Shown here: in pieces, positions 21,584-64,000 of the stretch
Layout: every line of letters starts with the position of its first letter
Position numbering within the stretch: the stretch's first letter is position 1
Source of the DNA: Candidatus Eiseniibacteriota bacterium
GTDB lineage: Bacteria; Eisenbacteria; RBG-16-71-46; CAIMUX01; JAHJDP01
Assembly: GCA_018831195.1 (NCBI GenBank)
Contig: JAHJDP010000032.1
Coordinates: 159,094 to 223,093, forward strand
Direction: 5' to 3'
DNA: 64,000 nt
Program-made: the position numbers and the translations under genes
The notes under the pieces: generated by a model
Databases searched by the model: none
Seen by the model: only the letters and a program-made list of their open reading frames with translations
Told to the model about the DNA's origin: nothing

Positions 21584-22669
21584 TTATCTGTGAGCCCGCC
21601 AAAGCAGGAAGAGACCGATTATAGAAAATGTGATATTCCCAAGCCATGCCGAAAGAAGGGGTGGGAGGGTGGCATGATACCCGAAGGCCTGTCCGACCCG
21701 GATGAAGGCGAAGTAGGCGAAACCCAAAAAGAGCGAGAGGCCGACTCCCAGTGCGACATTGCCTCCCCGCCTGTTGCGGAGCGAGAGAACCGATCCCAGT
21801 AACACCATGACCAGACTGCTGAACGGGAATGATCCCCGTATGTGATAATTGACCTCATATTTCTGGACCCGCACGCCCCCCTCGCCGAGACGGCAGATAT
21901 ATTGACGCAACTGTGTACGGCTCATGTAGAGCGGATCACCTTCCGGCCGCGCAAAATCTTCGGGTCTTTCCTCAAGGCGGGAATCGGCATATTTGTTGAA
22001 ACGGACCCCGATTTCCTGCTCTTCTAAAAAGCGACGCAGGATACCGGTGCGGAATTCCCAAATCTCATTACGCCAGGTGGCGCGCTGGGCGTCCAACCGC
22101 CACTCCAATTCCTGGGCGCCCTTCTTGGGATGCTGAACGGAAACAGTTCTGAGAATTTTGGTTGGGGCTTCATACGAAGCCGCCAGATAGATCCGGCCCA
22201 TGTGGCCGAGAAGGAGGATATCGCTGCGGCTGGCGCCCGATGTATGCTGGCGTCCGCGGATCTTGGTTCGATAAAGCTCTTCTTGCATGCGCGTCGTGTT
22301 CGGTGTCACCTGTTCGTTGATCAGCAGGGTCCCGACGGAAATGGCCGCCCCGGCCACAAGAAGCGGAGCGAGGATACGCAAGGGTGTGAATCCGGAGACC
22401 TGCATCGCGGTCAGCTCTCCCCATTTTTTAAGCTGGCCGAGGGAGAGAACGGCTCCCAACAACAGCGCGATGGGGATGACCTCGATGATGACCAGGGGAA
22501 GCCCAAAGAGGTAATACTGAATAACCACAGGGATAGAGGCTTTGTGATCGATAAATATATCGATTTTTTCGAAAAGATCGACGATGACAAAAATGCCGAC
22601 GAAGGCGACGAATCCGATGGTGGAGAAGAGTAGAAACTCTCTCAGAAGATGTCGATCAAGGATTTTCAC
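21584..22669 (-). CDS. lptG: LptF/LptG-family LPS export permease
   Basis: YjgP/YjgQ-family sequence. I chose the GTG at 22669 (VKILDRHLLREF…) because it lies 8 nt downstream of the lptF stop and parallels the lptF start. The longest ORF would overlap lptF by 91 nt. Confidence 0.7.
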   Translation of the reverse strand: MKILDRHLLREFLLFSTIGFVAFVGIFVIVDLFEKIDIFIDHKASIPVVIQYYLFGLPLVIIEVIPIALLLGAVLSLGQLKKWGELTAMQVSGFTPLRILAPLLVAGAAISVGTLLINEQVTPNTTRMQEELYRTKIRGRQHTSGASRSDILLLGHMGRIYLAASYEAPTKILRTVSVQHPKKGAQELEWRLDAQRATWRNEIWEFRTGILRRFLEEQEIGVRFNKYADSRLEERPEDFARPEGDPLYMSRTQLRQYICRLGEGGVRVQKYEVNYHIRGSFPFSSLVMVLLGSVLSLRNRRGGNVALGVGLSLFLGFAYFAFIRVGQAFGYHATLPPLLSAWLGNITFSIIGLFLLWRAHR

Positions 22670-22677
22670 CGTGTGGC

Positions 22678-24030
22678 CTACTTCCCCGTACCGAATGCGC
22701 ATGTCTTCCAGGTCAGATAGATGCCCAACAAACCCAGAATAATATTCGGCAGCCACATCGATACCCAAGGAGGCAAGATAGCCCGGTCCGCCAATTGTTC
22801 TCCTCCCACAAGGGCCAGGTAGTAGAAAAGGAAGAATCCGACGCTGATGAATCCCGCCGCCATGCCGCCCCTCCGCGATTGAATACCTAATGGAGCCCCC
22901 AAGAGAACAAAAATGATACAGGCGGCCGGAATCGAAAATTTCTTCTGTATCTCAACTTTGAACTGAGCGATTCGTTTTCCGGTGGCGAGAACCTGCAGCT
23001 CCTTTCGGCGCGCTTCCTCAACCCAGCGCCTTTGCTTCGGCCCCACCATCGAATCGGGCAGGACCGATTGGACCGTTGCGGGGCGCAACCAGGGGATCCA
23101 TCGCAGCAGCCTGGGAAGCGGCTTTGGCGCTGGGCCCGGCAGCTGGCGAAAATCGGTGAGCCCAAGCGTGGCCAGAGCCGTGTCCCGCTCCGCTTCATAT
23201 TGACCCGCCTCGGCATGCAGCTCTTCTATCTTTTCTACCATCATCGGGATCGACATCTCCCGTTGACCACGGGACCGGCGCACCGGGTTGGCTTGCCCCC
23301 GTTGGGAATTGTCGGTGATATTCATGGTTTGCCTTTCGAAGTGCAGGCGCCGGTATGTCGTGCCGCCTCCCTCGGCCTGAGCCTCATGAACCTCGCCGTC
23401 TTCCAATTCAAGGACAAGAATTCCCTGCTCCGGCTTGTAATGAAGAAAACCCTGTTTGGCCAGAATGGTCCGGGGCTGGGTCGAGCCCATGGAAGAATCA
23501 AAAATCATAACCTGCTGCATCCTTCCCGATCGGTCATCAAGCCGGCTGATAAACAAGGTGTAACCTGGAAAGTCGTCGATGAAGACTCCTTCCTGAATCT
23601 GTGCCGTTGGTCGGGTTTTGTTGACTTGTACGATGAGGTTGGCGAAGGCATGATTTGTATCGGGTAGTATGTAATTATTGAAGAGCGCCAGGGCGGCGGC
23701 AATGATCACGGAAAGGATCAGGGAAGGCATGATAATCTGGGTGAGAGAGACACCCCCGGCTTGGAGGGCCAGAGCTTCGTTGTCCTGAGCCATCCTGCCG
23801 TACGTCATCAGGACGCCGACGAGAACGGCACAGGGTACGCTGAGGGCCAGCATCCACCCGAGTCCCAAAATATACATCCGGGCCACGGTGAGAAAGGGGA
23901 TCCCCTTGCCGATGAAGAGATCGAGGTAGTCCAGCAGAAAATCCATCGATAGGAGCGCGGTCACAACGCCCAGCCCGAGCAGGCTCGGCCAAATGAGGGA
24001 TCGGATGACGTAGCGTTGCAGGATCGTCAC
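22678..24030 (-). CDS. lptF: LptF/LptG-family LPS export permease
   Basis: YjgP/YjgQ family. GTG start at 24030 (VTILQRYVIRS…) is preceded by GGAAAGGGG. The 54-codon N-terminal extension of the longest ORF is not family-like. Confidence 0.7.
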   Translation of the reverse strand: MTILQRYVIRSLIWPSLLGLGVVTALLSMDFLLDYLDLFIGKGIPFLTVARMYILGLGWMLALSVPCAVLVGVLMTYGRMAQDNEALALQAGGVSLTQIIMPSLILSVIIAAALALFNNYILPDTNHAFANLIVQVNKTRPTAQIQEGVFIDDFPGYTLFISRLDDRSGRMQQVMIFDSSMGSTQPRTILAKQGFLHYKPEQGILVLELEDGEVHEAQAEGGGTTYRRLHFERQTMNITDNSQRGQANPVRRSRGQREMSIPMMVEKIEELHAEAGQYEAERDTALATLGLTDFRQLPGPAPKPLPRLLRWIPWLRPATVQSVLPDSMVGPKQRRWVEEARRKELQVLATGKRIAQFKVEIQKKFSIPAACIIFVLLGAPLGIQSRRGGMAAGFISVGFFLFYYLALVGGEQLADRAILPPWVSMWLPNIILGLLGIYLTWKTCAFGTGK

Positions 24031-24174
24031 GAAACCCCTTTCCAGCGGTTCGCTCGCGGCTGAAAATCCGCCCGGTGGATGACTTTTGAACTTTTCCCCA
24101 ACCCCAGAGTATAGAATGCGGGGCCGGAAGGGAACCGAGTCCTTGAACCCTCTAACCTTATCGCTGTTCCGGAG
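24031..24174. promoter_or_regulatory. divergent promoter region between lptF (minus strand) and the giant OMP gene (plus strand)
   Basis: 144-bp non-coding gap between divergent starts. Confidence 0.3.
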
Positions 24175-27100
24175 ATGACCGGTAGTATTCACTACAAAAA
24201 ATGGGGCCGCAAGGCCGGTCTAGTTGGGATCATCACGGGTATCTGCCTGTTGATATTCTTCGGACTATCGCAGGGGCTACCTCAAGAAATGATTCCCGCA
24301 CCGGATCAGCTGGCGCCCGGTGTCTTATCGGGGGACTCAACAGAGGTTGATACCCTCGAAATGTCGGCGGAGGGAGAAATCTCTTCGGCTCAGGATACCG
24401 CAGAGCCCGATTCTCTCCCGGCGCCGATCACGGCCGCCATGGACCCCCTGATGGGCCCACCGGTTGCTTTGATCCCGGAGTCCGCCGATGCACTCCCGGC
24501 GCCGATCACGGCCGCCATGGACTCCCTGATGGGCCCACCCGCTCCTATGCTTCCCGATTCCCTGCCGGAGATAACGGTGACCGTCGCGCCGAAAGCTCTT
24601 CCCAGTCCAAGGGCCGGAACAGATGTGGAGACCATCCAAGCCGAAACCTTTGAAGGAGACAGCTTGAAAATAAGTCCCCTCTGGGACTTTATTCCCCGGT
24701 GGCATCCAAGTGATGATCTGCTGTTTTTCCGAATCTATAGAACGAACCGGGCGCGCGCTTTTATTTTGGATACCCTCGGACTCTATCATGAGAAGTTTCC
24801 TGTTTCAGACACGACAGGTTTTTCTATCATTTTCCCCGAAGATATGGGGATTAGGGATCGCGAACGGACGACCACTCAATATGCGCCGGATATCAACAAC
24901 CGGACCATCGTGCGATACAAACTCATCCGCGATGTCGCCCTCGGCCTCAGGATTCAGGAAACATATGATCAATATCTCGAGAGATTGACCCGCCTAACGA
25001 TCCACAAGATCTGGAGAGAAGAGGTCAAAAAGACGCTGGCGGAGCAGGCTGATCTGGGAAGCAAAGCCGGATTGGTGAAAATCGACCTGCCGGTCGAGGT
25101 CCCATCGCAACTCTCTCCCATCTTTGGAAAGGGGAAACCGAATCTTTCGGTTCGGGGAAGCGAGAAGATCTCTATCGGCGGAACATCACGCTGGCATCCC
25201 AACCGCCCCGTCAACGAGTTCCAACGGAGGGAATCCAAATTTCCACAGCTGGATATGAAGCAGGAATTGAACCTGCGCCTTTCGGGAAATATTGGAGACA
25301 AGGTTTCCGTCGACGTCGATCAAAACAGCGCGGCGGTCACGCCCCTCGAAAACCGGATCAAGATCCACTACACCGGTTATGAGGATGAGATCATCCAGCG
25401 GGTTGATCTTGGAAATACAAGTCTCAGCCTTCCCGGAACCCGTTACGTCTCCTACGGCGGCAGCCACCAGGGGCTCTTTGGAATTAATGCCCAGGCCAAG
25501 ATGGGGGATGTGGGGCTGAATATGATTCTCTCAAAGCAGGAAGGAGAGACGGCCTCGAAAACGGTGACCCGATCCAGTGAAATGACGACGATTTTGATCA
25601 AGGATTTAAATTATCAGGGGAATCAGTATTTCTTCTTTAGCGACCCGAATTTGAATCCAACCAATATTGATGCCAACTCAGTCTTTGTCTTCGTTGACGA
25701 CGCCAATGGGTATAACAATACACAGACCGGCGCCATTCATGGATTTGCGACATTAGACGGATCATATGATCCACAGAACCCGACTGCCGGCGCGGTTTAT
25801 GAAGGAGATTTTGATCAACTTCATTTGAAAGATGATTTCCTCCTTCAGACCGACCTCTACTTCGGCCACATGGTTCTCATCCTGAACCAGCCCCTCAGTA
25901 CAGATGATGTTCTGGCTGTTATGTACAAGACGACCAGCGGATTCCAAGTGGGCGGCATCGACGGTGATAGGCTCATCGCGAAGATGATCCGGCCCTCGCG
26001 CAGTGATTCGGACTATGATCTTACCGATTTGACATCCGGCGTGTGGGCTTCAACGCGCCATCTGGAAATGAAGAATATTTATTGGCTCGGCGGCCGCGGC
26101 ATTCTCGAGGAAAGCCTCGAGATAAAGGTCCGCCGCGAGCTGACCTCCGGTCAGCAGATTGATCCGTGGAAGGAAGGACGCTTCAGCTATCTCCAGATCC
26201 TCGGCGTCGACCTGCTGGAGCAGACAGGAGCCTCATCATGGGAGCCCAGCCTGGAGGGGGATGATATCGTCGATCCTCAATGGATCGATCCGGAGGGGGG
26301 ATTCATCATCTTCCCCACGCTTCGGCCTTTTGATCCAAGTCCGGCGGATAGCCTGCGGATGTACGGTCCCGGGGGAATCATGGCGTCGCAAGGCGTCAAT
26401 CCTGATTCGATCCCGATCCTGGCTCCATCTGTCAGAAATTCCGATGTCTATGATGCGAAGGCATTCGATGATGATCCCCTGACCCACAGCAAGTTCTACC
26501 TCGATGTGACCTATCGCAGCCCCGTCACAAGCCTTCAAATCGACGCCTTTAACATTATTGAAGGGTCTGAGGTGATTACCTCAGGCGGCCGGACGCTGTC
26601 CCGGGATCGGGATTACCGGATCGATTACCTGACCGGTGATATCGAGATCCTGCCCGCGGCGAATCTGTCGGAAGATGATGAAATCAAGGTCAATTATTCG
26701 ACGATCCCCTTCGCCGGGGGAGCCGATAAATCTCTGTTCGGTTTCGCCGCGGCTTACAAACCGGAGGGCTCCCCTCTCGCGCTTTCCTCAACCTGGGTTT
26801 TTGACAGCCAGGGATCACAGGATCGAAGACCACGATTGGGGCAGGAGCCCCGAAGGACCGCCGTCGGCGAGCTGGCCATGAGCTACCAAACATCACCCTG
26901 GTTCCTGACCTCCCTGATCGACGCCCTCCCCGGTGTTGATGCGCGGGCGAGAAGTTCCCTCTCGATAGACGCCGGAGTGGGGATGAGCATGCCCAATCCC
27001 AATACAAAAAACCGCCTCTACCTGGATGACTTTGACGGCACCAACGAGACTCAAGATATCTCCGTCAACCGGCAGGCTTGGCGGCCCTCATCGATCCCGC

Positions 27101-32330: not shown

Positions 32331-32338
32331 GCGCGGCC

Positions 32339-33871: not shown

Positions 33872-33931
33872 GACTCTCCTTCTTCGAATTCAGTTTGTTG
33901 AGACGGATATCGGAAGGGGAACGGGGGTTTA

Positions 33932-36436: not shown

Positions 36437-36471
36437 TGCGGTGAGTGCAGCGCTCAAGGGAACCTCAATAA

Positions 36472-36855: not shown

Positions 36856-36873
36856 GCGTTGCCGGGAGCGGAT

Positions 36874-38258: not shown

Positions 38259-38289
38259 ATCTTTCGCCGGATCTTGGGGAGAGGGATCG

Positions 38290-39258: not shown

Positions 39259-39329
39259 GTTGGGTTTTCTATGGTCAAGAAACAAAGAAGCCCGCGCACA
39301 TTTAGAGCGTTATCGGGAGGCTTAAAGGG

Positions 39330-39599
39330 ATGGCGCTGACGAAGGTTAAGAAGCAAGAAATCATCGAAAGATATAAACTGCACGAACTGGATTCGGGCTC
39401 ACCCGAAGTACAGATCGCGTTGTTGACGGAGAAGATCCGATACCTCACAGAGCATTTCCGCGTGCACAAAACTGATCACCATTCAAGAAGAGGCCTTTTG
39501 CGAATGGTCGGGCAGCGGCGTCGACTTCTGGATTATCTAAAGAGTACAGAAGTCGATCGTTACCGTAGCATTGTGAAGGAACTCGGCCTCCGCCGGTAG
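39330..39599 (+). CDS. rpsO: 30S ribosomal protein S15
   Basis: 89 aa. …[14 protein letters not shown]…[19 protein letters not shown]… is canonical S15. Confidence 0.9.
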
Positions 39600-39677
39600 C
39601 TTTCTGATCCCCTTGAAAAGATCCATCGCGCAAGGAATTATTTTCCCAAGGAACCGGCGCGTAAACTGGAGGAATCT

Positions 39678-46530: not shown

Positions 46531-46576
46531 CAGTCTGGGGCGAACAAGATGAAGCCTATGGGATGAGGACAGCTTC

Positions 46577-47998: not shown

Positions 47999-48001
47999 AC
48001 C

Positions 48002-49602: not shown

Positions 49603-49608
49603 CCCTCC

Positions 49609-50868: not shown

Positions 50869-50890
50869 ACAATATGAGCGAGGAGCGAGT

Positions 50891-52045: not shown

Positions 52046-52050
52046 GATTG

Positions 52051-53064
52051 ATGAAACGGAAACTCCTCTTCGGATCTATATTAAGCCTTCTCTTTCTATA
52101 TTTGGCCTTCCGCAAATCGGACTTTGCCCAGATCATTGAGCATATCCGAAACACGCGCATGATCTATCTCCTCCCGGGAGTCATCCTGACACTTCTCAGT
52201 TATTTTGTTCGAGCCGTCAGGTGGCGTTATCTCCTGGCTTCGGTGAAAACCATTTCATTAAGTCCTCTCTTTAAATCCACCATGATCGGTTTCATGGCCA
52301 ACAACCTCCTTCCGGCGCGACTGGGGGAGCTGGTGAGGGCGCATACCATCGGGACATGGGAGGGCATCTCCCGATCTTCGGCCCTGGCGACCATCGCCAT
52401 GGAACGTGTCTTTGATCTCTATACCATGTTGGTGCTTTTCGGCGTGATATCGATCTTTCTCCCATTGACGCCGGCGGTCCAGAAATTGGGCATGATCGGC
52501 CTGCTCTTCGGCCTCCTTGTTCTGGGTCTCTTTATCCTGCTGCTGCGCGCCGGTCCCAAGACGATCCAGCTTTTTGGCCGGTATATCCCCTCCCGATTCA
52601 GGGAACGCGGAATCGGTCTTCTCTGTGCTTTTCAGGAGGGTCTAGGAGTCCTCAAAAAGGGACGACAATTACTATGGGCCTCCATGTTATCGGTGCTGAT
52701 GTGGGGGTTCATCGTCGGTGTCATCTATCTTTGTTTCACGGCAACCGAGATAGAGGTTGATGGGAAACCCTTGCCGGTATCAGCGGCGGTGGTCGTCCTG
52801 GTTGTCATGGCGATCGGACTAATGGTGCCCTCGGGCCCTGGATTTATCGGATCTCTTCAGCTAGCAGCGAAACTCGGTCTCAGGGTTTTTGGAGTGGAGG
52901 ACAATATGGCGCTATCCTTCGCCATCGTCTATCACGCCACTCAATGGGTTCCGGTCACTTTGGTCGGGCTGATATTTCTCATCCATGCGAATCTCTCGCT
53001 CAAAGAGATCAGCCGGACATCGACCGGTGATAAGGGTCGCGATCCGACGGGGGCCGGGTTATGA
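52051..53064 (+). CDS. UPF0104 / lysylphosphatidylglycerol-synthase-TM-region family membrane protein (flippase-like)
   Basis: Multi-TM protein with RAVRWRYLL…MIGFMANNLLPARLGELVRAH, typical of the UPF0104 family. Confidence 0.6.
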   Translation: MKRKLLFGSILSLLFLYLAFRKSDFAQIIEHIRNTRMIYLLPGVILTLLSYFVRAVRWRYLLASVKTISLSPLFKSTMIGFMANNLLPARLGELVRAHTIGTWEGISRSSALATIAMERVFDLYTMLVLFGVISIFLPLTPAVQKLGMIGLLFGLLVLGLFILLLRAGPKTIQLFGRYIPSRFRERGIGLLCAFQEGLGVLKKGRQLLWASMLSVLMWGFIVGVIYLCFTATEIEVDGKPLPVSAAVVVLVVMAIGLMVPSGPGFIGSLQLAAKLGLRVFGVEDNMALSFAIVYHATQWVPVTLVGLIFLIHANLSLKEISRTSTGDKGRDPTGAGL

Positions 53065-54554
53065 ACCGGCTCGCACGCCCGGCTCCATTCCGACAGCGCG
53101 TGAGGAGGTTATTCTTTCCACCCGGCCCGCCCCAGCGGTTTCAAGAGCTTATTATTTCGCGCGGCGTGGTCATTCTCGCGGCCGCGGTCGTCGGGTTGAT
53201 TCTCGGTATCCAATGGTTTCAAGTTAATCCCCGTATTGTCAAAACACTTATCGGATTAATAGTCTTCTTTGTTTTTGTACGTTTCCCCGTCTATATGGGT
53301 GTCGGCGCTTTCCTATTGCTATATCCATATCCTACCGCTATCGCGTTGGGAAATACGAACTTTGTATTTGCTATTCTCTTTACCATGGTTTGGATTGTAA
53401 AAGTTGGTTTGGGATTGGAGCCGCGACCGCAGGGATCCCTTGTCGGCAAACCCATCTTTTTTCTTTTGGTGGCGCATGCCCTGTCGCTGATCGTGCTGCC
53501 TGAGTGGATGGATTTCAAAGAGACCTTTGCGTTTCAACAATTCCTGCTGGCCGCCGTGCTGATGTACACGGTGATGACGAATACCGTTACGACGCCGAAG
53601 CGTCTTCACTATATATTTCACATGCTTACTATCGGATCGATTATTGTTAATGTGCAATCGGTTCTTCAGTTTATTGCGCCGACCCTCCGGATTATCCCCG
53701 AATGGTATTATTCCTCCCCGGCTTTGGGCGCGGCGGTGGAGTTCGGAGGGCGTGTCGGTGGTGTTTTTCGTTCGCATCCTCTTCTGGCGGACTCGGCGGC
53801 GATGATGATCCTGCTGCAGCTCTTTATGGCCAGCCGCTGCGCCGGCAAACCATGGCAGCGTCTGTACCATTTTGGCGTCATCGGCCTGGCCATCATCACC
53901 CTTTTCATCACGGTGAACCGCGGAGGAATGGTCATTCTTGTGCTGGGATTGGCTATCATCGGATGGCACCTGCGCCGGGAACTGAAGTTCTCGCGGATCG
54001 CCATTGCCGCATCGGCGCTGGTGCTTGTCTTTATCATTGCGGAAGCGGTGACCAGCGGCCGGTATGAGCAGGAAGTCACCATGTTTTCCCGTCTTGCCGG
54101 CACCCGCTTTGAGTCGTTAATGCCTGAAAACAGAGCCGTCGTCTGGATCGCCTACTGGGCCTGGATTCTCGAATCTCCGTTTATCGGACATGGGCCCCGG
54201 ATCGATACCACCGTCCTTGGATTCTGGCCTCACAACGCCTATCTCTTTTATGCCTACACGGTCGGTTTCCTGGGAATGTCCATATTTCTTTTTATCATTC
54301 TGAAGAGCATTATAAAAACTCGACCCCGGGGCAGGGTCTCATGGACCAGGGGGTCATATGTCAAAGGAGCTTTACTCCTGGTTCATGTGATGCTTATCCA
54401 ATTTGCCGTCGGTCAGCTCCGAACCGACCACCAGCGAGGAAATGTTTTTATCTACTTGACCTACAGTCTGTTAGCGCAGGCCTCGATTGTCTATCGTCTT
54501 TCTGAAAAGGAAGACAAGCGTCGGCGCTCATTGACACGTAACCGCCAGGTATGA
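53061..54554 (+). CDS. O-antigen ligase / Wzy-type polymerase family membrane protein
   Basis: About 12 TM helices. The Wzy_C-like motif FIGHGP…HNAYLFYAYTVGFLG matches H-N-x-Y-L…G-x-x-G. ATGA overlap with the upstream gene. Confidence 0.65.
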   Translation: MNRLARPAPFRQRVRRLFFPPGPPQRFQELIISRGVVILAAAVVGLILGIQWFQVNPRIVKTLIGLIVFFVFVRFPVYMGVGAFLLLYPYPTAIALGNTNFVFAILFTMVWIVKVGLGLEPRPQGSLVGKPIFFLLVAHALSLIVLPEWMDFKETFAFQQFLLAAVLMYTVMTNTVTTPKRLHYIFHMLTIGSIIVNVQSVLQFIAPTLRIIPEWYYSSPALGAAVEFGGRVGGVFRSHPLLADSAAMMILLQLFMASRCAGKPWQRLYHFGVIGLAIITLFITVNRGGMVILVLGLAIIGWHLRRELKFSRIAIAASALVLVFIIAEAVTSGRYEQEVTMFSRLAGTRFESLMPENRAVVWIAYWAWILESPFIGHGPRIDTTVLGFWPHNAYLFYAYTVGFLGMSIFLFIILKSIIKTRPRGRVSWTRGSYVKGALLLVHVMLIQFAVGQLRTDHQRGNVFIYLTYSLLAQASIVYRLSEKEDKRRRSLTRNRQV

Positions 54555-54572
54555 TATGATTTTAGACGGATC

Positions 54573-54603
54573 GATAGACGCCGATAGATAGACATAGATA
54601 GCT
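54573..54603 (+). repeat. short degenerate GATAGA/GATA microsatellite-like tract
   Basis: gatagacgccgatagatagacatagatagc contains five or more GATAG/ATAGA units. It lies in the 432-bp intergenic region. Confidence 0.5.
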
Positions 54604-54641
54604 GGACAAGGAGGTATGGACGCGACTCGTTGCTAATGAGG

Positions 54642-54672
54642 GATCCTCCGCTTCGAGCGGAGATCTTTATGG
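54642..54672 (+). terminator. candidate terminator hairpin downstream of the Wzy-like gene
   Basis: GATCCTCCGC-ttcga-GCGGAGATC is a near-perfect inverted repeat, followed by TTTATGG. Confidence 0.3.
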
Positions 54673-54986
54673 ATGAAGTATGGAAGTGACCGGGGCGTTG
54701 AAAACGAACGACCCCTGGACGGGTAGGAACAGCAACGAGCCCTCATGTGGCGGCACGTCCGGTTCGCCTGGGGGATACATCAAGGGTTTACCCTGTGGAC
54801 AAGATGACTCCGGCGGAAACGGGCATGGAAAATATCTCTACGGAGAGGGCTTCCCGACCTCCCCGAATAAAGTCCTCGAAGAACGGAACAGCACGCCCCG
54901 CGAAGAAGGTTCCGCGGGATGCATTGTCTGTTCCCTGTTCTATTCCCAAACCACGCCGGGCGAAATCGTGGCATCGCCGCTGTTAT

Positions 54987-55583
54987 ATGGCATTCGGCAA
55001 ACGCCTCTTTGATCTCGTCATTACTATACCCGCCATTATCATCCTCCTTCCCCTCTTTCTTGTTCTCGCCATTCTCATCCGGGTCGATACGCCGGGCCCT
55101 GTGATCTACACAAGCCGCAGGGTTGGAGAGGGAGGAAGGATCTTCAACTTCTTCAAGTTTCGCTCAATGGTTGTCGGCGCGGAAGGTTATCGAGATCGAC
55201 TTCAAGAGCTCAATGAGGTGGATGGCCCCGTTTTCAAGATCGCCAATGATCCCCGCACGACCCGTTTCGGCCGCTTTCTCAGGCGCACCAGCTTAGATGA
55301 GCTGCCCCAGATGTTCAATGTCCTGCTGGGCGATATGACCCTCGTAGGCCCGCGTCCACCTATTCCGGATGAAGTTGTTCAGTATTTGCCCTGGCAGCGG
55401 GCCCGGCTCAGTGTCAGGCCGGGTATAACCTGTCTCTGGCAAATCAGTGGAAGGAGCCAATTGGGTTTTGATGAGTGGATGCGTCTGGATCTGAAGTATG
55501 TAGAAGGGATCAGCCTCGGGTTGGATATAAAGATCCTTCTCCAAACCATACCAGCCGTTCTCTCGAGAGAAGGCGCCTACTGA
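54987..55583 (+). CDS. polyprenyl-phosphate sugar phosphotransferase (bacterial sugar transferase, WbaP/EpsL C-terminal domain type)
   Basis: MAFGKRLFDLVITIPAIIILLPLF…RVGEGGRIFNFFKFRSM…DELPQMFNVLLGDMTLVGPRP are family-defining motifs. I chose the ATG at 54987; the upstream ORF extension has no homology. Confidence 0.85.
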   Translation: MAFGKRLFDLVITIPAIIILLPLFLVLAILIRVDTPGPVIYTSRRVGEGGRIFNFFKFRSMVVGAEGYRDRLQELNEVDGPVFKIANDPRTTRFGRFLRRTSLDELPQMFNVLLGDMTLVGPRPPIPDEVVQYLPWQRARLSVRPGITCLWQISGRSQLGFDEWMRLDLKYVEGISLGLDIKILLQTIPAVLSREGAY

Positions 55584-55678
55584 TTTTCGAGGTGGTTTGG
55601 ACGGATTGGAGAAGCGAATTTGTATATCACGGCAATAATCGCGGCAACGAAGTGAGCCATCAGGGGGAGTCACGTATT

Positions 55679-57232
55679 GTGAGGCGCGGGAAGATTGCTC
55701 ATTCGAACCGGGTATGGGCATGGGCACTCCTACTTTTAATGGCTCTGGGTCTCCGGGTGGCGGGTCTTGGAAGACAATCCCTATGGATCGATGAAGCCTA
55801 CTCTGTGAAGTATGCGCATCTGGGTGGATCGCTGACCTGGGATGACTATTTGGATAACCTGCATGGGCCCCTGCATACCATACTCTTGCACAATTGGTGC
55901 ACTATCGCCGGGGATGGAGAGGCCGCGTTGAGGTGGCCGAGTGTCATGGCCTCAGTTCTAACACTGCCGTTCTTCTGGCGCCTGACACGCCGCCTCATAG
56001 GAGCTAGGGGGGCCTGGGCCGCAACGGCGGCCATAGCGGTTTCTCCCTTTTCCATCTGGTATGCGCAGGAAGTGCGCAATTACAGCCTCTTTCTTCTGAT
56101 GGCCTGTGTTGCCTTGTTGGCATGGTTTCGATCTCTGGATGGGCCGGGGCATATCGGGCGGTGGATTCTGCATGTCCTCCTTCTCTTCGGTGCCTTTCTT
56201 TCCAATCTAGCCAGTCTCTTTATTATCCCGGTGCAACTCATTTGGTTGATTGGACGCCGCCGTTCACACTGGGTGAGCACGCTCTCAGCTTGGGCCGCCG
56301 TGATGCTGCTACTGCTTCCTTGGGAGATTCGTTTCTATAATTACCGGGTTGTCCCCTCCGGCTTGTTGGACAAAACAAAGACGGTCGAGTTGGCCCCGGC
56401 GCGGGAAGAAACATGGGCGAGTTCCTGGAGTATCCCTTTTACCTATTATGCTTTTGCCGGCGGTTATACATTAGGCCCTCCGCTTGAAGAACTGCATGAA
56501 GACCGGATCGGCGCCCTCAAGCATCATATGCCGCTGTTGATAGCGGCCGCCCTTCTTTTTGCGGGCCTTATCGGATGGGGGGTTGTCGGCCGCCGTGAAC
56601 CGAATCGCAAGCAGCGACTTCGCCTCTTAGCCTGGTTGCTCATACCTCCGCTGGGTGTTTGGCTTATTTCTCTTCTCAATCTGAAAGCGATGAATCCTCG
56701 CTACGCTCTGGTCGCCTATCCGGCATTTCTTGTTCTTCTCGCCGCCGGTTGGATAAGCATGAAGCGAAGAGGTGTGCGGATCGCTGCCGCGATCGCAGTG
56801 CTGGCGATCTGGGGATTGTGCTGGGGACGAGTTCAGTGGGATGAAGCCTATGCGAAAGAGGATTACCGTTCCATTTCCGGTTGGATGAGGGAACAGCTTG
56901 ATGCGGAAGTATTATGGATCACCATTGGTGTCGATGACCCGCTGCGGATCTATTACCTTCGTGATTGTTTTAACGGGATGGATTTGAAGGTTGGAACATA
57001 CCGCCGCCTGACATCGTATCCGCCTTCACATTGGGAACGGTTTTGGAATGAGACGGAAGAACTCGCTTCGGAACATCGAAGAATTCTACTCTTTGAATCG
57101 CGGACATGGCACCTTGATCCCGATGGCCGGGGTCCCGGATTGCTAAGAAAATATTGTTCAAATCCGGAGACCATCAACCGCCACGGCATCCGTGTCTTGA
57201 AATGTGAAAGAGGGGAGAACACCGATGACTAG
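55679..57232 (+). CDS. GT-C-fold glycosyltransferase family 39-like (ArnT/PMT-like) membrane protein
   Basis: GTG at 55679 is 9 nt after GGGGGAG. N-terminal multi-TM region with LWIDEAYSVKYA… (the DE motif in the first periplasmic loop), then a large C-terminal soluble domain. Confidence 0.6.
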   Translation: MRRGKIAHSNRVWAWALLLLMALGLRVAGLGRQSLWIDEAYSVKYAHLGGSLTWDDYLDNLHGPLHTILLHNWCTIAGDGEAALRWPSVMASVLTLPFFWRLTRRLIGARGAWAATAAIAVSPFSIWYAQEVRNYSLFLLMACVALLAWFRSLDGPGHIGRWILHVLLLFGAFLSNLASLFIIPVQLIWLIGRRRSHWVSTLSAWAAVMLLLLPWEIRFYNYRVVPSGLLDKTKTVELAPAREETWASSWSIPFTYYAFAGGYTLGPPLEELHEDRIGALKHHMPLLIAAALLFAGLIGWGVVGRREPNRKQRLRLLAWLLIPPLGVWLISLLNLKAMNPRYALVAYPAFLVLLAAGWISMKRRGVRIAAAIAVLAIWGLCWGRVQWDEAYAKEDYRSISGWMREQLDAEVLWITIGVDDPLRIYYLRDCFNGMDLKVGTYRRLTSYPPSHWERFWNETEELASEHRRILLFESRTWHLDPDGRGPGLLRKYCSNPETINRHGIRVLKCERGENTDD

Positions 57233-58367
57233 AGGCCGGGTCGTTCTCTTCTCCAATGCCCCCTATTTTGGCGGGGCCGAAGGGTATTTGGTCTATCTGG
57301 CGCAGGGTTTAAAACCTCTTGGGTGGGACCCGATCGGTCTGGTTCCCGAGGGATCGTGTGGAGCGGTGCTTGCGGGCCGCTTTGAAAAGGCCGGCTTTCC
57401 CGTCGAAAAATTCAATCACCGGCACTGGACATCTCCGGCCGGCGCCTGCGACATCCTCAAAAAGTTAAAGCAGATCGATGGCGAGATATTGCATCTTAAT
57501 CTTCCCTCGCCCTATGAGGCGCTGCGGAATACCGTCGCCTTTTGGGGGCGGCTGGCGGGTTATCGACGCGTTGTCGCAACAGAACACCTTCCGATGTCTT
57601 TGCGGGCCCGGAGGCGGGCCTTGCTCAAAATCCTGCTGGCTCCAGCCATTGATGCCTTTATTATTATGACGCGATCGGGCGCGGAAGATTTGCATCGGAT
57701 TCATGGTATCGGTCAGGATAAAATTGTACGCATTCCATATGGGATTGATCCGGCGCCGGAGGTTGCTCCGGCCGGCCGCCGCGACCTGCTTGAAGGATTG
57801 AAACTTCCACCGGAAACGCGCCTTGTCGGCCATGTCGGCCGTCTTACCGCGCGGAAGGGGCACCGCATTCTGCTGGAGGCGCTGGCACAAGAGAAAGAGA
57901 TGCTTCGGGATCGCCGGACCGCTGTTCTATTCATCGGTGAGGGAGAAGAAGAAGAAAATCTGCGGCGATGCTCCGAGACACTCGTGCTGAATGAGTTTGT
58001 ACATTTTATGGGCCATCGCGAGAATGCCCGGAATCTTATCGGTTTGCTGGATCTTCTCGTGCTACCCTCCTTTGTTGAAACACAGCCCTTTGTCATCCTC
58101 GAGGCCATGGCCGCCGGAATTCCGGTTCTCTCGACGATGGTCTATGGGATTCCCGATATGGTTGTCCACGAGGTCACGGGGCTTCTGGTCGAGCCGGGAG
58201 CGATCGGCCCGCTCGGGGCCGCGCTCAAGCGCCTTCTCCTCGAGGATGAGACCCGAATCAAGATGGGGCGATCCGGTTTGGAACGATTCAATGAGCTTTT
58301 TCGGATGGATAGGATGGCGGAGAAGACGGAGAGGGTCTATGCCGCCCAAAATGGGGTTGGGCTTTGA
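57225..58367 (+). CDS. GT4-family glycosyltransferase
   Basis: GT-B fold with the C-terminal EX7E-type motif region (…FVETQPFVILEAMAAGIPVL…). The ATG at 57225 follows a GGGGAG Shine-Dalgarno and overlaps the upstream stop by 8 nt. Confidence 0.8.
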   Translation: MTRGRVVLFSNAPYFGGAEGYLVYLAQGLKPLGWDPIGLVPEGSCGAVLAGRFEKAGFPVEKFNHRHWTSPAGACDILKKLKQIDGEILHLNLPSPYEALRNTVAFWGRLAGYRRVVATEHLPMSLRARRRALLKILLAPAIDAFIIMTRSGAEDLHRIHGIGQDKIVRIPYGIDPAPEVAPAGRRDLLEGLKLPPETRLVGHVGRLTARKGHRILLEALAQEKEMLRDRRTAVLFIGEGEEEENLRRCSETLVLNEFVHFMGHRENARNLIGLLDLLVLPSFVETQPFVILEAMAAGIPVLSTMVYGIPDMVVHEVTGLLVEPGAIGPLGAALKRLLLEDETRIKMGRSGLERFNELFRMDRMAEKTERVYAAQNGVGL

Positions 58368-59593
58368 ACATATTGCTAATCAACAAGTTCCATTATGCAA
58401 AAGGTGGAGCCGAGCGGTATTACCTCGATATTTCCCGGCTTCTCAGGGAGGCGGGCCACCAGGTTGGGCATCTCTCCATGGCCCATCCGCGCAATGTCCC
58501 TGCCACCGAAGCCGATGCTTTTGTGGAGGAGGTCGATTATCACAAGTCGATGGGTGGGCTGGGTAAGTTGAAGGCGGCCTCCCGGGTTCTTTACAACCGG
58601 GAGAGTGTGAGGCGGGTTCGAGAGCTGGTTAGGGCTCGGAGACCGCATGTAGCCCACCACCAGAATATCTATCACCAGATTTCTTTATCCGTCGTGAGGG
58701 AGTTGGCAAGATGTGATGTTCCTATGGTCATGACATTGCATGACTACAAGCCGGTCTGCCCCGCCTATCTGTTGATGGTAGGGGGGGAGATCTGTGAGCG
58801 GTGCCGGAAGGGCCGTTTCTATCATGCCGCCATGAACACTTGCATCCTCAATTCCAGACCCGCCAGTATCCTGGGCAGCCTGGAGGCTTACCTGCATACT
58901 CTCTGGGGCACTTATGATCAGATCGCCCTCTATCTCTGCCCCAGCCGTTTCCTTGTGGATAAAGTCGGTGAAATGAGCCAAAGGCCGATCAAACTCCGGC
59001 ATCTTCCGAATTTTCTTCCGACCGATGATTTCAAGCCGGTCTACGAGGGTGACCCGGTTGTGGTGTATGCTGGAAGACTGTCGCGTGAAAAAGGACTACC
59101 GACCCTCATTGAGGCCGCGCGGCGGCAGAATGTCGGCCGGGGATGGAAGCTTCGGATTCTGGGTGAGGGCCCGCTTCGCGCGGAGTTAGAGGCAAAGGTC
59201 ACCGAATGGGGCTTGGAGGACGGGATCCGATTTGAAGGATTCTGTTCGGGTGAAGATTTAAAAGAGGTGATTCAAAGCGCCAGCGTGGTGGTGGTTCCAT
59301 CGGAATGGTACGAGAATCAGCCCTATGCCATTCTCGAGGCCTTCGCGCTGGGAAAACCAGTGATCGGAAGTTCCATCGGAGGTATCCCGGAGCTGGTTCG
59401 TGCCGATCGGACAGGATGGACGTTCCCGCCAGGGGATGCTGATGGCCTGGGCATGGCGATGCGCGAGGCTCTGGATCATCCGGAGCAAACCCGCGAAATG
59501 GGGCGGGAGGCGAGACGATTGGTGGAGAAGGATCATAATCCCGCACTGCATATGGAAAGGCTGTTAAACATTTATGAAGAGGTTTCCTCATGA
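58364..59593 (+). CDS. GT4-family glycosyltransferase
   Basis: MNILLINKFHYAKGGAE…SEWYENQPYAILEAFALGKPVI is GT4-like. TTG start overlaps the upstream stop. Confidence 0.8.
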   Translation: MNILLINKFHYAKGGAERYYLDISRLLREAGHQVGHLSMAHPRNVPATEADAFVEEVDYHKSMGGLGKLKAASRVLYNRESVRRVRELVRARRPHVAHHQNIYHQISLSVVRELARCDVPMVMTLHDYKPVCPAYLLMVGGEICERCRKGRFYHAAMNTCILNSRPASILGSLEAYLHTLWGTYDQIALYLCPSRFLVDKVGEMSQRPIKLRHLPNFLPTDDFKPVYEGDPVVVYAGRLSREKGLPTLIEAARRQNVGRGWKLRILGEGPLRAELEAKVTEWGLEDGIRFEGFCSGEDLKEVIQSASVVVVPSEWYENQPYAILEAFALGKPVIGSSIGGIPELVRADRTGWTFPPGDADGLGMAMREALDHPEQTREMGREARRLVEKDHNPALHMERLLNIYEEVSS

Positions 59594-60879
59594 GCCCTCC
59601 TGATGACAGGAAGCACGGGGCCGATTCGGTCCTGGGGGGGCGGCGGCCGCTGAAGATCGCCATGGTGGGGCAGAAGGGTATTCCCGCCACCTATGGCGGT
59701 ATTGAGCGGCATGTCGAGGAAATCGGTATGCGGTTGGTGGAACGAGGGCATGAGGTCACCGTTTTCAGCCGGAACCATTATTCATCTCATACGGGGATGT
59801 ATCGCGGGATCCGCACCATCCGTTTTCCTTCGCTCAACACGAAGCATTTCGACGCGATTTCACATTGCGCGATTGCGACATTGATAACGATGTTTTCGAA
59901 GTATGATATTGTGCATTTTCACGCCCTGGGACCGAGCATTTTCGCGTGGCTGCCCCGGCTCAAAAAAACAAAGACAATTGTCACGGTCCATGGTTTGGAT
60001 TGGCAGCGCGGAAAATGGGGGAAGATGGCCCGGCTTTTTCTTCAGAAATGCGAAGAGCCTGCGGTCAAGTTCCCCAATCGCACTATTGTCGTTTCTAAAA
60101 CACTGCGAAAGTATTTCAAAGAGGAATACAACGCCGAGACATTTTTTATTCCCAATGGAACAAACCCTGGCGCGCAGTTGCCGCCGAACAAGATCAAGAG
60201 GTACAACCTCGACAAGCATCCTTACATTCTCTTTGTAGGGCGGTTGGTGCCTGAGAAGGGTTGCCACTATTTGATCGAGGCCTTCCGGAGACTTGATACT
60301 GATGTCCGTCTTGTCATGGCGGGGGGATCCTCTTTCAGTGACGGCTATGTCGATAGCCTTGAGAGTCTTCGTGACAATGATCCGCGCGTGCAAATGGTCG
60401 GATATGTTTATGGCGAGGTGCTCGATGAACTTTGGACGAATGCCTATTTTGTGGCTTTGCCGTCGATCCTGGAGGGGCAGTCGATTTCACTGATCGAGGC
60501 GTTGAGTTACGGCAAGTGCGTTCTTTTGAGTGATATTCCGGAGAATGTAGAAGTCGTTGAAAATGAGGCGGTGACCTTCCGCAGCCGGGATGTCGAAGAT
60601 CTCCACAAGAAGATGAAGATGTTGCTGGAAAACCCGGAAATGGTGAGCCGGGTGGCAAAGCAATGCGGTCATCTGGCCGAAGATCAATTCAGCTGGTCTC
60701 GAATTGTTGAAGCAACGGAATCCGTATATTACGACGCGGTGAGCGGATCGCCCCCCAAACCGAAGCGGAAGAAAGATGAAGAAAGTCATTCATCGGAAAA
60801 AGAGGATGAGCTGCAAATCATCGAGGGGGGGAAGGAGGAGGATGGGTCCGATCGGCCCCAGCATCGGTCTCATTTCTAG
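59590..60879 (+). CDS. GT4-family glycosyltransferase with a charged C-terminal tail
   Basis: LKIAMVGQKGIPATYGGIERHVEE…PSILEGQSISLIEALSYGKCVL is GT4-like. ATGA overlap with the upstream gene. About 50-aa Lys/Glu-rich tail. Confidence 0.8.
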   Translation: MSPPDDRKHGADSVLGGRRPLKIAMVGQKGIPATYGGIERHVEEIGMRLVERGHEVTVFSRNHYSSHTGMYRGIRTIRFPSLNTKHFDAISHCAIATLITMFSKYDIVHFHALGPSIFAWLPRLKKTKTIVTVHGLDWQRGKWGKMARLFLQKCEEPAVKFPNRTIVVSKTLRKYFKEEYNAETFFIPNGTNPGAQLPPNKIKRYNLDKHPYILFVGRLVPEKGCHYLIEAFRRLDTDVRLVMAGGSSFSDGYVDSLESLRDNDPRVQMVGYVYGEVLDELWTNAYFVALPSILEGQSISLIEALSYGKCVLLSDIPENVEVVENEAVTFRSRDVEDLHKKMKMLLENPEMVSRVAKQCGHLAEDQFSWSRIVEATESVYYDAVSGSPPKPKRKKDEESHSSEKEDELQIIEGGKEEDGSDRPQHRSHF

Positions 60880-60907
60880 CATCCCGCAAGAGACAAGGCC
60901 GCCCCAC

Positions 60908-61171
60908 TTATTTCGGAAGGGGTTTTAACCTCTCCACCTGCTGAATTGTCAAAAATACATCACAAACCGCGCAGTTCATCAGTTTTACAGCGAACGATCC
61001 TTCCACGATACCGCCGCTGAGGGTTCCCGCAATGTCCCAGCAATGCCGCGAACGATCTCCCTTGTCTGAAGAAGGCTCCCATGCGGCCGCGGCAGCGGGG
61101 CAAACACCCAAATCGTCGACCTGAAAACCGCCGGGCTCCCGGCCGCATTTTTTCAACTCCCAACAATTCAT
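60908..61171 (-). CDS. small Cys-rich protein with two CW motifs (two-CW-domain-like)
   Basis: 87 aa read from the ATG at 61171 (preceded by AGGGGAG): MNCWELKKCGREPGG…GVCPAA…RHCWDIAGTLSGGIVEGSFAVKLMNCAVCDVF. Seven Cys, two C-W dipeptides, and a CGREPGG motif. It is the only minus-strand gene inside a 40-kb plus-strand block. Confidence 0.5.
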   Translation of the reverse strand: MNCWELKKCGREPGGFQVDDLGVCPAAAAAWEPSSDKGDRSRHCWDIAGTLSGGIVEGSFAVKLMNCAVCDVFLTIQQVERLKPLPK

Positions 61172-61427
61172 CGTCTCCCCTGTCTTCTTCCCGGTTCTGC
61201 GGCGCCATGCCATCTTGAAATCCAGGGATCTTCTTCGGCATCAAGTGTCTATGGGGGTGGTCGGCATATAGTGCTTCGACCTTGATCCCAATTCAATCCT
61301 CTCTTTTGATCGCAGGGGGGTGGCGGGTGGAAGGGGTCGGCTTCCTGGCACCTATCCTTTTCAGTGACTTGAGGTTTGGGGTTTTGTATTCTGAGACCGG
61401 TTTCAACGTGCTGAGGGAGGAAAACCC
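61172..61427. promoter_or_regulatory. divergent intergenic region between the two-CW ORF and manC
   Basis: 256-bp non-coding gap between divergent starts. A strong GAGGGAGG Shine-Dalgarno precedes the manC GTG. Confidence 0.3.
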
Positions 61428-62513
61428 GTGCCTGAATCTGATCTTGCCGTCTTCATCCTGGCTGGGGGATCCGGAGAGCGTTTCTGGCCCCTAAGCCGCA
61501 AGGTGCGTCCAAAGCAGTTTTTCGCGCTGGGCGGAGAGGATTCTCTCATCCGCCAAGCCTATCGCCGGGCCTTGGCTCTCAATCCAAAGGGCTCTCCCTG
61601 GGTCCTCTCATCGGAAAGCCTTGCCTCGGCCCTTTTGAAGGAGCTGCCCCGCCTCCGCCACGAGAGGGTGATCCAAGAAACAGTGGCAAAGAACACCGGT
61701 CCCGCCATTGCCCTGGGTTGTCATCTCCTGGCCATGGAACATCCCGGAGCCTGCGTTGTCATCCTTCCCTCGGATCATTGGATTCCGGAGCTTGATCTAT
61801 TTCTGACGACGGTCAAGACCGCGATAAGGGTCGCCCGCAGCACGGGTGGGTTGGTCACCCTCGGTATCAAACCCCACCGGGCTGAAACGGGATACGGCTA
61901 TATTGAGCGCGGAACGCCAAAGGGTGATATTCCGACCGCGTACAGCGCCAATGGATTCTATGAGAAACCCGAACTCGCCGATGCGAAGAAATATCTGAAA
62001 TCCGGAATGTATTTCTGGAACAGCGGGATTTTTATCTGGACCGTAACGGCATTCTTGACGGAATTGAAAAGAGTTCAGCCGGATATCTATGATGCGCTGC
62101 CGGCTCAGGAAGAGCTGGAAACTGAATCGAACCGGCGGGCGGCTATCAATAAATATTTTGTAGCAGCGCCCTCGATTTCAGTGGATCAGGGCATCATGGA
62201 GAAGGCGAAAAGTGTCTGGGTCGTGGAGGCGCCTTTTGCCTGGTCGGATTTGGGGACATGGGAAGCCTGGGGCGAAACCCGCCCAGCCGACACCACGCAG
62301 AATCGTACAGATGGAGATGTTATTGTTCAGGATGCAAGCGGCAATATTGTATATTCGGACGAAGAGGGCCGGGTCGCCCTGCTAGGAGTCGACAATCTTG
62401 TTGTGGTGCGCACAAAGGATGTGACCCTGGTCTGTCCCCGGGAGCGGGTACAGGAAATCCGGGAGCTGGTCCGGAGGATGCGGGAGGAGAATCATGAAGA
62501 TCGGTTCTTATAG
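61428..62513 (+). CDS. manC: mannose-1-phosphate guanylyltransferase (nucleotidyltransferase domain only)
   Basis: FILAGGSGERFWPLSR…PKQFF…YGYIERG are ManC/CpsB N-terminal motifs. 361 aa, so it lacks the C-terminal PMI/cupin domain found in bifunctional forms. GTG start. Confidence 0.8.
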   Translation: MPESDLAVFILAGGSGERFWPLSRKVRPKQFFALGGEDSLIRQAYRRALALNPKGSPWVLSSESLASALLKELPRLRHERVIQETVAKNTGPAIALGCHLLAMEHPGACVVILPSDHWIPELDLFLTTVKTAIRVARSTGGLVTLGIKPHRAETGYGYIERGTPKGDIPTAYSANGFYEKPELADAKKYLKSGMYFWNSGIFIWTVTAFLTELKRVQPDIYDALPAQEELETESNRRAAINKYFVAAPSISVDQGIMEKAKSVWVVEAPFAWSDLGTWEAWGETRPADTTQNRTDGDVIVQDASGNIVYSDEEGRVALLGVDNLVVVRTKDVTLVCPRERVQEIRELVRRMREENHEDRFL

Positions 62514-62940
62514 CCTGGTACTATTTTTAACGATGATTCTCGCTTTCGGGTGCGGGAAATCCCGGAAGCAGACGACGCCGGTGGAAGAGGCGCCGGGGCG
62601 GGAACTGCCCTCAGAAGCACCGGATAACCGGGTGCAGCCAGGATTCCCAGAGGCGATGCCGCTGCCGGGTGAAGAGAGCGGCGAAGACGAACCGAATACC
62701 CGGTATGGGTATCGTGTGCAGGTCGCGGCCTTTACCCAGATGGACCCGGCGGAAGCGCGGGCCGCGGAATTGCGGCGCCTCTTTGATGAACCTGTATATA
62801 TTGTCCATGAAGGGTTGTTGTACAAAATCCAGGTTGGTGATTTTGTCAGCCGGGATCGAGCGCAGGAAATTAGGCGTAGAGCCGTCGATTTGGGATTGGA
62901 TGGCGCTTTTGTCATCGACACGATGATTAACAAGCAATGA
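62494..62940 (+). CDS. SPOR-domain lipoprotein
   Basis: Lipobox ILAFGCG. C-terminal SPOR-like repeat (YRVQVAAF…YKIQVGDFVSRDRAQEIRRRAVDLGLDGAFVI). Confidence 0.7.
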   Translation: MKIGSYSLVLFLTMILAFGCGKSRKQTTPVEEAPGRELPSEAPDNRVQPGFPEAMPLPGEESGEDEPNTRYGYRVQVAAFTQMDPAEARAAELRRLFDEPVYIVHEGLLYKIQVGDFVSRDRAQEIRRRAVDLGLDGAFVIDTMINKQ

Positions 62941-63016
62941 TGGAAGAAAATGAATGGAAGTAAAATTGACGGAAGAACCATAAAGAGCGCGGGCTGAATA
63001 GGGAGCGATTCAATCA

Positions 63017-64000
63017 GTGGAATATCGTCTTTTCGAGGATGCGGGCTGGCGGCGTCTTCAACCGTTTACTTGGATGCGCCCCGTCTATGAATTGAGGGTC
63101 GGCGCGTGGACTCTGCGGGAACGCTGGCAACGGCTTCTCGGGCGCGAAAATCTGGGTTTTGCGGCCCGTCCTGATCTCCACGATCTAATCTCAGAGCGGT
63201 ACGGGGAGCGGGCCGGTGAACAGCGGCCGGAGGCCGATCTCATCCTGATCAACGGATGTTGGCTGCCGGAGGCCGATGCCGCATCTCTTGAAAAATCTTT
63301 CGATCTCTTGAAGGCGGGGCAGGGGTACATCGACGATGACCGCATTCTCGCTATCCGGCCGGCGCCCCCGGTCTCACAGAAGGCGCTGGGCGAGATGCAA
63401 GCTATCCTATGTGAAGGGGAACGTCCCAAAGGAATCGATTGGCTTGATTTTCCCAAACGGCAAAAATGTCTCGGTCATTTGTGGGAATTGGTCGGTTGGA
63501 CAGAGGAACTTCTGGAAAGCGATTTGGCGAAGAGATTGGGAACACCCTACGGCGAGGATGTTATTGTTAAAGGAGAGATTGAAGAACCCGATCGGGTTTC
63601 GCTGGGAGCCGGTGTTGTTGTCCGGCGGGGCGCCTTGCTCGACGCCAGTGAAGGTCCGATCGTTCTCGAGGCGGGATGCCGGGTGGCGCCGATGACCTGG
63701 GTCAAGGGACCGGTTTGGGCCGGTCCGGGATGTCTTCTGCTGGGTGAGAGAATCGGCGGCGGTGTGGTGTTGGGGCCCGAATGCCGGGTTCATGGTGAAA
63801 TCGATTCCACTGTTGTCTTGGGTTATTCGAACAAAGCCCATGAAGGTTTTGTCGGGCATTCATACCTCGGTGAGTGGGTGAATTTGGGCGCCCTCACGAC
63901 CACCAGCGATCTTAAGAATAACTACGGCGATGTCCGATTGATGGAGGAAGGGCGTGCGGTTTCATCGGGCCGGATCAAGTTGGGATCTTTTCTTGGAGAT
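63017..64000 (+). CDS. left-handed beta-helix (hexapeptide-repeat) protein, putative sugar nucleotidyltransferase or acyltransferase-like; 3' end outside the window
   Basis: Open frame from the GTG at 63017 (alternative ATG about 19 codons downstream) to the window end. The C-terminal part shows hexapeptide-repeat periodicity (…VVLGPECRVHGEIDSTVVLGYSNKAHEGFVGHSYLGEWVNLGA…). Confidence 0.5.
   Translation, partial: MEYRLFEDAGWRRLQPFTWMRPVYELRVGAWTLRERWQRLLGRENLGFAARPDLHDLISERYGERAGEQRPEADLILINGCWLPEADAASLEKSFDLLKAGQGYIDDDRILAIRPAPPVSQKALGEMQAILCEGERPKGIDWLDFPKRQKCLGHLWELVGWTEELLESDLAKRLGTPYGEDVIVKGEIEEPDRVSLGAGVVVRRGALLDASEGPIVLEAGCRVAPMTWVKGPVWAGPGCLLLGERIGGGVVLGPECRVHGEIDSTVVLGYSNKAHEGFVGHSYLGEWVNLGALTTTSDLKNNYGDVRLMEEGRAVSSGRIKLGSFLGD

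Follow-up and report, generated by a model that had tools for sequence, protein, structure and literature searches.

A divergent six-cysteine two-CW protein in an Eisenbacteria genome belongs to a family joined to signal-transduction proteins

Between a long exopolysaccharide (EPS)-type locus and a manC-like gene in the genome of a Candidatus Eiseniibacteriota bacterium lies one short open reading frame (ORF) on the opposite strand, and it raises two questions: whether it is a gene at all and, if so, what a small cysteine-rich protein does there. We analyzed the surrounding 64,000 nucleotides (the window; contig JAHJDP010000032.1). A preliminary description of the window, made from its letters alone, had read the ORF as a lone minus-strand gene and offered three roles for its product: a metal- or redox-sensing element, a RiPP-like precursor, or a regulator of the EPS locus. 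The sequence and translation of minus-strand positions 60908..61171 bear out the 87-amino-acid frame described there (MNCWELKKCGREPGGFQVDDLGVCPAAAAAWEPSSDKGDRSRHCWDIAGTLSGGIVEGSFAVKLMNCAVCDVFLTIQQVERLKPLPK, stop codon TAA). Its isolation also holds: it had been described as alone on the minus strand over some 40 kb, and the checked genes from 24175 to 60879 are all on the plus strand, with lptF and lptG (21584..24192) as the nearest real minus-strand genes upstream. The region that separates the ORF from the divergent manC-like gene has the size first stated for it, given the GTG start of the latter (Table 1), and presumably holds the promoters of both genes; a consensus scan of this region found no sigma-70-like promoter. 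The sole terminator-like hairpin nearby (60850..60869, plus strand) falls within the last stretch of the glycosyltransferase gene. A search of the whole window against Rfam gave no match, a tRNA scan gave nothing informative close to the ORF, and no second copy of its domain was found elsewhere in the window.

The plus-strand genes leading up to the ORF fall into several blocks. A 2181-aa ORF with an SprA_N (motility/secretion) match (24175-30720) directly follows the divergent, minus-strand lptF/lptG pair, and a conserved housekeeping block of rimP, nusA, infB, truB, ribF and pnp (31710-41774) parts this SprA-like gene from the EPS-type locus (45727-60879). The locus itself encodes Poly_export/SLBB, AAA_22 ATPase, phosphodiesterase, LPG_synthase_TM, Wzy_C, Bac_transf and PMT_2 proteins and three GT4 glycosyltransferases, and ORFs at 44589-45557, 46577-47998, 48724-49602 and 49609-50868 in and around it have no Pfam match. 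The last of the GT4 proteins carries a Lys/Glu/Ser-rich C-terminal tail of about 45 residues past its Pfam domains (…SPPKPKRKKDEESHSSEKEDELQIIEGGKEEDGSDRPQHRSHF).

ORF length is weak evidence here, because a window of 55% GC is full of such frames (52 ORFs with 40 aa or more overlap positions 58000..64000), and homology decides the matter. The HMM and homologue searches that the preliminary description had proposed as a check both returned matches. The protein matches the NCBIfam family NF045718 (two_CW_domain) with 75.7 bits and an E value of 2.8e-21, residues 1-77 aligning to profile positions 1-78 of 80; this is far over the curated cut-off of 35 bits, and the name 'two-CW domain', given in the preliminary description, proved correct. 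Pfam holds no match for the protein at E≤1. Among 5.8 billion proteins, a homologue search found 121 matches, of which the identical one is a hypothetical protein (MBU1702542.1, locus tag KJ970_06890) of a Candidatus Eisenbacteria bacterium metagenome-assembled genome (MAG) whose contig matches the window in gene order. The non-identical matches share 37-56% identity with the window protein and belong to Nitrospirota, Desulfobacterota, Coriobacteriia, a cyanobacterium, Promethearchaeota and other hosts. Scans of genomes and metagenomes returned, identical copies aside, no relative closer than 54% identity. A chance ORF in a promoter region, the reading to which the frequency of random frames of this length lends itself, is ruled out as a negligible possibility by the strength of the curated HMM match, by homologues that span bacterial and archaeal phyla, and by the presence of every family-invariant residue. 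Judged by its sequence and homology, the ORF is a real gene, and it encodes a cytoplasmic, stand-alone, single-domain two-CW protein, a divergent six-cysteine member of the named family.

Gene calls disagree on where this identical sequence begins: NCBI annotates 87 aa, and the Logan gene call gives 101 aa, as expected from an in-frame ATG further upstream. We favor the 87-aa start, and the upstream ATG is probably not the true one, because the family consensus opens with MNCWE, preceded at most by a few residues, and because NCBI annotates the shorter protein. The AGGGGAG that the preliminary description had called a good Shine-Dalgarno sequence is present and purine-rich, but it stands merely 3 nt from the ATG; with this short spacing we treat it as a putative Shine-Dalgarno that may function in initiation. 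The two C-W dipeptides noted earlier (C3W4 and C44W45) are in the translation, as are CGREPGG at residues 9-15 and CPAA at 24-27, to which LGVCP at 21-25 can be added; the earlier count of seven cysteines was wrong, and the protein has six, at residues 3, 9, 24, 44, 67 and 70.

Table 1. Coordinates of the two-CW gene, its codons of interest and its flanking features in the window.
Feature	Coordinates	Strand	Size, basis or remark
Last GT4 glycosyltransferase gene (of three), convergent with the two-CW gene	59590..60879	+	
Gap between convergent stop codons of the last GT4 gene and the two-CW gene	60880..60907		28 bp
Two-CW coding sequence	60908..61171	-	87 aa + TAA; NF045718 match, homologues
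Two-CW domain match, residues 1-77	61171..60941	-	NCBIfam HMM
Invariant Cys codon C70	60962-60964	-	sequence, family alignment
Invariant Cys codon C67	60971-60973	-	sequence, family alignment
Ser52 codon, in place of the family's 91%-conserved seventh Cys	61016-61018	-	
Invariant Cys codon C44	61040-61042	-	sequence, family alignment
Invariant Cys codon C24	61100-61102	-	sequence, family alignment
Invariant Cys codon C9	61145-61147	-	sequence, family alignment
Invariant Cys codon C3	61163-61165	-	sequence, family alignment
Putative Shine-Dalgarno-like AGGGGAG	61175..61181	-	3 nt before the ATG at 61171; read from sequence
Alternative in-frame upstream ATG	61211..61213	-	would give a 101-aa product
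Divergent intergenic region, two-CW gene / manC-like gene	61172..61427		256 bp
manC-like gene, mannose-1-phosphate guanylyltransferase-like	61428..62513	+	GTG start at 61428; NTP_transferase + ManC_GMP_beta-helix

We then asked how the window protein compares with its family. An alignment of 119 sequences has the invariant residues C3, W4, E5, C9, G15, G22, V23, C24, P25, C44, C67 and C70, and the window protein carries all 12. Family cysteines follow the spacing C-x5-C-x14-C-x19-C-x7-C-x14-C-x2-C; the first CW is invariant, and the tryptophan of the second occurs in 104 of the 119 homologues. A seventh cysteine at alignment position 52 is present in 108 sequences and missing from 11, including the window protein, which has Ser52 instead; since this cysteine is not invariant, Ser52 does not bar family membership. 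Only three of the 119, the window protein among them, have as few as six cysteines. The window protein is also divergent in the loop at residues 26-43, where it has Ser41 in place of a glycine found in at least 90% of members. Conserved residues run across positions 3-70, the only variable part is the short C-terminal tail, and no histidine column is conserved in the alignment. Counted as clusters at 50% identity, the family is large: searched with a profile, 1.84 billion cluster representatives yielded 1801 members at E≤1e-3, of which 1056 reach E≤1e-10. In the literature library searched, no paper on the two-CW family or NF045718 was found, nor did a search on cysteine-rich chemoreceptor sensor domains turn one up.

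Domain architecture gives the clearest view of the company that two-CW keeps. Among the best 149 representatives out of the 1801, 95 are of stand-alone size (≤160 aa), and in the 54 longer proteins the domain is N-terminal (34), C-terminal (15), in the middle (1) or present in two copies (4). Pfam scans of 30 long members and of several genome-encoded proteins place the domain N-terminal to HisKA/HATPase_c, with or without PAS/GAF (P0149, P0193, P0196, P0206, P0240, P0259), and, at residues 89-179, near the N-terminus of a PAS and HATPase_c protein (P0218); N-terminal to a cNMP-binding domain plus Pkinase (Ser/Thr kinase), with or without PP2C (P0203, P0261, P0123, L013), and to Pkinase alone (P0258); and N-terminal to PAS-GGDEF (P0264), to the adenylate/guanylate cyclase domain Guanylate_cyc (P0158), to Usp (P0159, L005), to PilZ (P0161), to a cNMP-binding domain plus rhodanese, and to an NAD-dependent epimerase. 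At the other end of the chain, two-CW follows histidine kinases (P0177, P0231), methyl-accepting chemotaxis proteins (MCPs; P0210, P0140 and L053 by Pfam, L056 and L062 by size and position), GGDEF (P0166), REC (P0176, P0220, P0257) and a rubrerythrin-like domain (P0221). Some of these fusions could be gene-calling artefacts of metagenomic data; identical architectures recur across separate clusters. Two-CW is a module that moves among signal-transduction proteins, and so wide a range of partners is characteristic of a modular signaling domain.

Stand-alone copies keep similar company. In a scan of one genome per species we found 301 loci and studied the neighborhoods of 80 of them, calling and clustering the neighboring ORFs and using genes at least 4 positions off in the same loci as the control. 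The largest neighbor clusters, confirmed by Pfam, are those of PAS/GAF histidine kinases and sigma-54 activators, present at 21 loci, and of MCPs, present at 12. Genes for signaling proteins (chemoreceptor, kinase or sigma-54 activator) make up 11.7% of the immediate neighbors (±1) and 3.7% of genes at least 4 positions away (Fisher p = 1.6e-4), and MCP genes alone 5.2% and 0.6% (p = 2e-4), p-values that are optimistic in that the 80 loci share phylogeny and are not independent. Stand-alone two-CW genes thus preferentially adjoin genes for chemoreceptors, kinases and sigma-54 activators. At 63 of the 80 loci no signaling gene stands at ±1, and the window gene, which has no adjoining signaling partner, is likewise an 'orphan'. 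The hosts of the 80 loci are nearly all uncultivated lineages typical of anoxic habitats (Nitrospirota, Desulfobacterota, Omnitrophota, and Asgard and methanogenic archaea).

Three of these loci merit individual description. In locus L086 (3630-7615), an apparent operon encodes a response regulator (RR), a KaiC-like ATPase, a receiver-like protein (RR), a two-CW protein and a HATPase_c kinase. Locus L087 (2037-10070) runs from an 800-aa Ser/Thr kinase through two tandem two-CW genes to an MCP-like gene, whose start overlaps the stop codon of a two-CW gene, and then to a hybrid histidine kinase; one protein of the two-CW pair is among the closest relatives of the window protein (53% identity). 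Locus L001 (6930-8306; the same region as L017) comes from a Nitrospirae MAG: three two-CW paralogues, each 101 aa long, stand there in tandem and are followed immediately downstream by two NIR_SIR (sulfite-reductase-like) genes.

Structure prediction adds little on function. AlphaFold2 models reached a pLDDT of 51 with 34 sequences and a moderate 68.5 with 119 sequences, and neither a sequence-profile search nor a fold search with the moderate model found a relative in the Protein Data Bank (PDB); with a model of this quality and no PDB match, the fold yields no functional hint. Within the sequence, residues 1-24 and 44-67 share the pattern CW-x(4-6)-C-x14-C, and an hhalign comparison of the halves places C3W4..C9..C24 in register with C44W45..C52..C67, weakly (P = 0.029, probability 1.7%), so that the two halves may stem from an ancient internal duplication.

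What, then, does the window protein do? On balance it is probably a stand-alone signaling module with a cysteine-bound metal cofactor that acts in trans on a partner. The six invariant cysteines would bind the metal; our first guess at the cofactor is an oxygen- or redox-sensitive Fe-S cluster, with zinc as the chief alternative. When the cofactor changes state, the two-CW domain would alter with it, which in fused proteins would switch the attached kinase, cyclase or chemoreceptor and in stand-alone proteins, that of the window included, would exert the same control by binding a separately encoded partner. We favor Fe-S because of a set of resemblances, namely cysteines that are dispersed with a single CxxC among them, C-P and C-W dipeptides that do not vary in the family, and hosts that come mostly from lineages typical of anoxic habitats, which would also suit an oxygen-labile cofactor. 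Counting against a sensor reading are three properties of the window protein itself: the missing seventh cysteine, the divergent loop, and the lack of a signaling neighbor. Of the three roles first proposed, a metal- or redox-sensing element fits best: the fusions and neighbors place the family in signaling, and the cofactor and its redox role are what we infer.

The strongest competitor holds that two-CW is a structural zinc module for dimerization or docking, an adaptor or output that recruits signaling proteins without sensing anything. Six invariant cysteines and a CxxC knuckle (C67-x2-C70) would suit such a scaffold, as would the domain's occurrence at both ends of proteins. Tandem pairs and triples of genes and two-domain proteins are common in the family, and they suggest self-association of two-CW. 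The REC fusions, in which two-CW is the sole domain after the receiver and so occupies the usual output site, mean that the domain may there act as adaptor or effector rather than as a sensor at the input, and together with the C-terminal rubrerythrin-like and GGDEF fusions they complicate a plain 'input sensor' reading. We nevertheless consider the zinc scaffold unlikely. Its cysteines, a single CxxC pair with the others dispersed, are unlike those of typical zinc ribbons and fingers, no zinc-binding domain matched its fold, and near-restriction to lineages of anoxic habitats would be unexpected for a plain zinc scaffold; moreover, the domain mostly sits N-terminal, ahead of PAS, GAF or cNMP-binding and kinase domains, as is typical of input domains.

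Less probable again, and in our view quite unlikely, is that the window protein is a lineage-specific regulator of the adjoining EPS locus or of manC, for example one that couples redox state to exopolysaccharide synthesis. Its position, convergent with the last GT4 gene and divergent from the manC-like gene, speaks for this role, and we found nothing beyond position to support it locally. c-di-GMP signaling often controls EPS production, and two-CW is fused elsewhere to GGDEF and PilZ. But the neighborhood survey counts against the idea: homologues of the window's glycosyltransferases, manC, SPOR, PMT_2, Bac_transf and Wzy genes occur within 10 kb of the two-CW gene at none of the 80 loci, and the setting between EPS genes and manC is not shared by the family. 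The window protein also has no DNA-binding domain by NCBIfam or Pfam, and the family offers no close relatives for a comparison of synteny.

Another of the roles first offered is that of a precursor of a RiPP (ribosomally synthesised, post-translationally modified peptide). In its favor, the protein is small and cysteine-rich, family members at times come as tandem paralogues, and at one locus (L003) a pair of radical-SAM/SPASM genes lies within 8 kb. We nonetheless reject it as very improbable: the window encodes no modifying enzyme, protease or exporter, and the gene's neighbors there are glycosyltransferase, manC-like and SPOR genes; the suggested check for modifying enzymes beside homologues found radical-SAM genes to be rare (2 of 80 loci) with no recurring neighbor cluster of that kind; conservation and the invariant cysteines extend over the whole 77-residue domain, where a RiPP would combine a conserved leader with a core that varies; and two-CW also occurs inside multidomain proteins of 300-800 aa.

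A cysteine-bound cofactor in a module acting in trans thus remains the reading we prefer for the window protein, and a bolder version of it extends to the family as a whole. We offer this version tentatively, as a possibility rather likelier to fail than to hold: two-CW may be a widespread class of sensor that carries a cysteine-bound metal cluster, probably Fe-S, in a fold new to the PDB, perhaps built from two CW-x(4-6)-C-x14-C halves, and that in anaerobes would feed redox, oxygen or metal input to chemotaxis, two-component, Ser/Thr-kinase and cyclic-nucleotide signaling, in cis or, in its free-standing form, in trans; the Eisenbacteria protein would then represent a minimal variant with six cysteines. 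The single gene is a modest find, a rather divergent but ordinary member of a family already named by NCBI curators, and the family is of more interest than the gene, with about 1800 clusters at 50% identity in bacteria and archaea and no Pfam model. If its cysteines do hold a redox-active cluster, the domain would add a sensor input of a new type to chemotaxis, kinase and cyclic-nucleotide pathways in anaerobes, and the small stand-alone proteins would lend themselves readily to biochemical work.

Comparison with known systems sets the window protein in this frame. With NF045718 it shares a full-length match, both CW dipeptides, the six invariant cysteines and the typical stand-alone size, and it differs in Ser52, in its divergent 26-43 loop and in having at most 56% identity to non-identical members. 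Ferredoxin-type Fer4 domains differ from it, as it has no Pfam match and a cysteine spacing unlike CxxCxxCxxxCP. Fe-S sensors such as the [4Fe-4S] PAS domain of NreB, FNR and WhiB-like proteins offer a mechanistic analogy only: they too are cysteine-rich cytoplasmic inputs to kinases and regulators, and the invariant C-P and C-W dipeptides of two-CW recall what we take to be the cluster-ligand environments of such proteins, whereas sequence and fold similarity to them is not detectable and we know of no Fe-S motif that its cysteine spacing fits. The chemoreceptor zinc-binding (CZB) domain (PF13682) is a functional analogue and not a relative. CZB is a zinc-dependent sensor found on MCPs and GGDEF proteins and as a free-standing protein, with a His3Cys zinc site; two-CW likewise is small and cytoplasmic, C-terminal on MCPs, fused to GGDEF and free-standing, but Pfam gives it no match at E≤1, and it has six or seven cysteines with no conserved histidine and a different predicted secondary structure. 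With the input and adaptor domains of signal transduction more broadly, two-CW shares recurrent fusion to histidine kinases, Ser/Thr kinases, GGDEF, cyclases, MCPs, REC, PilZ and Usp.
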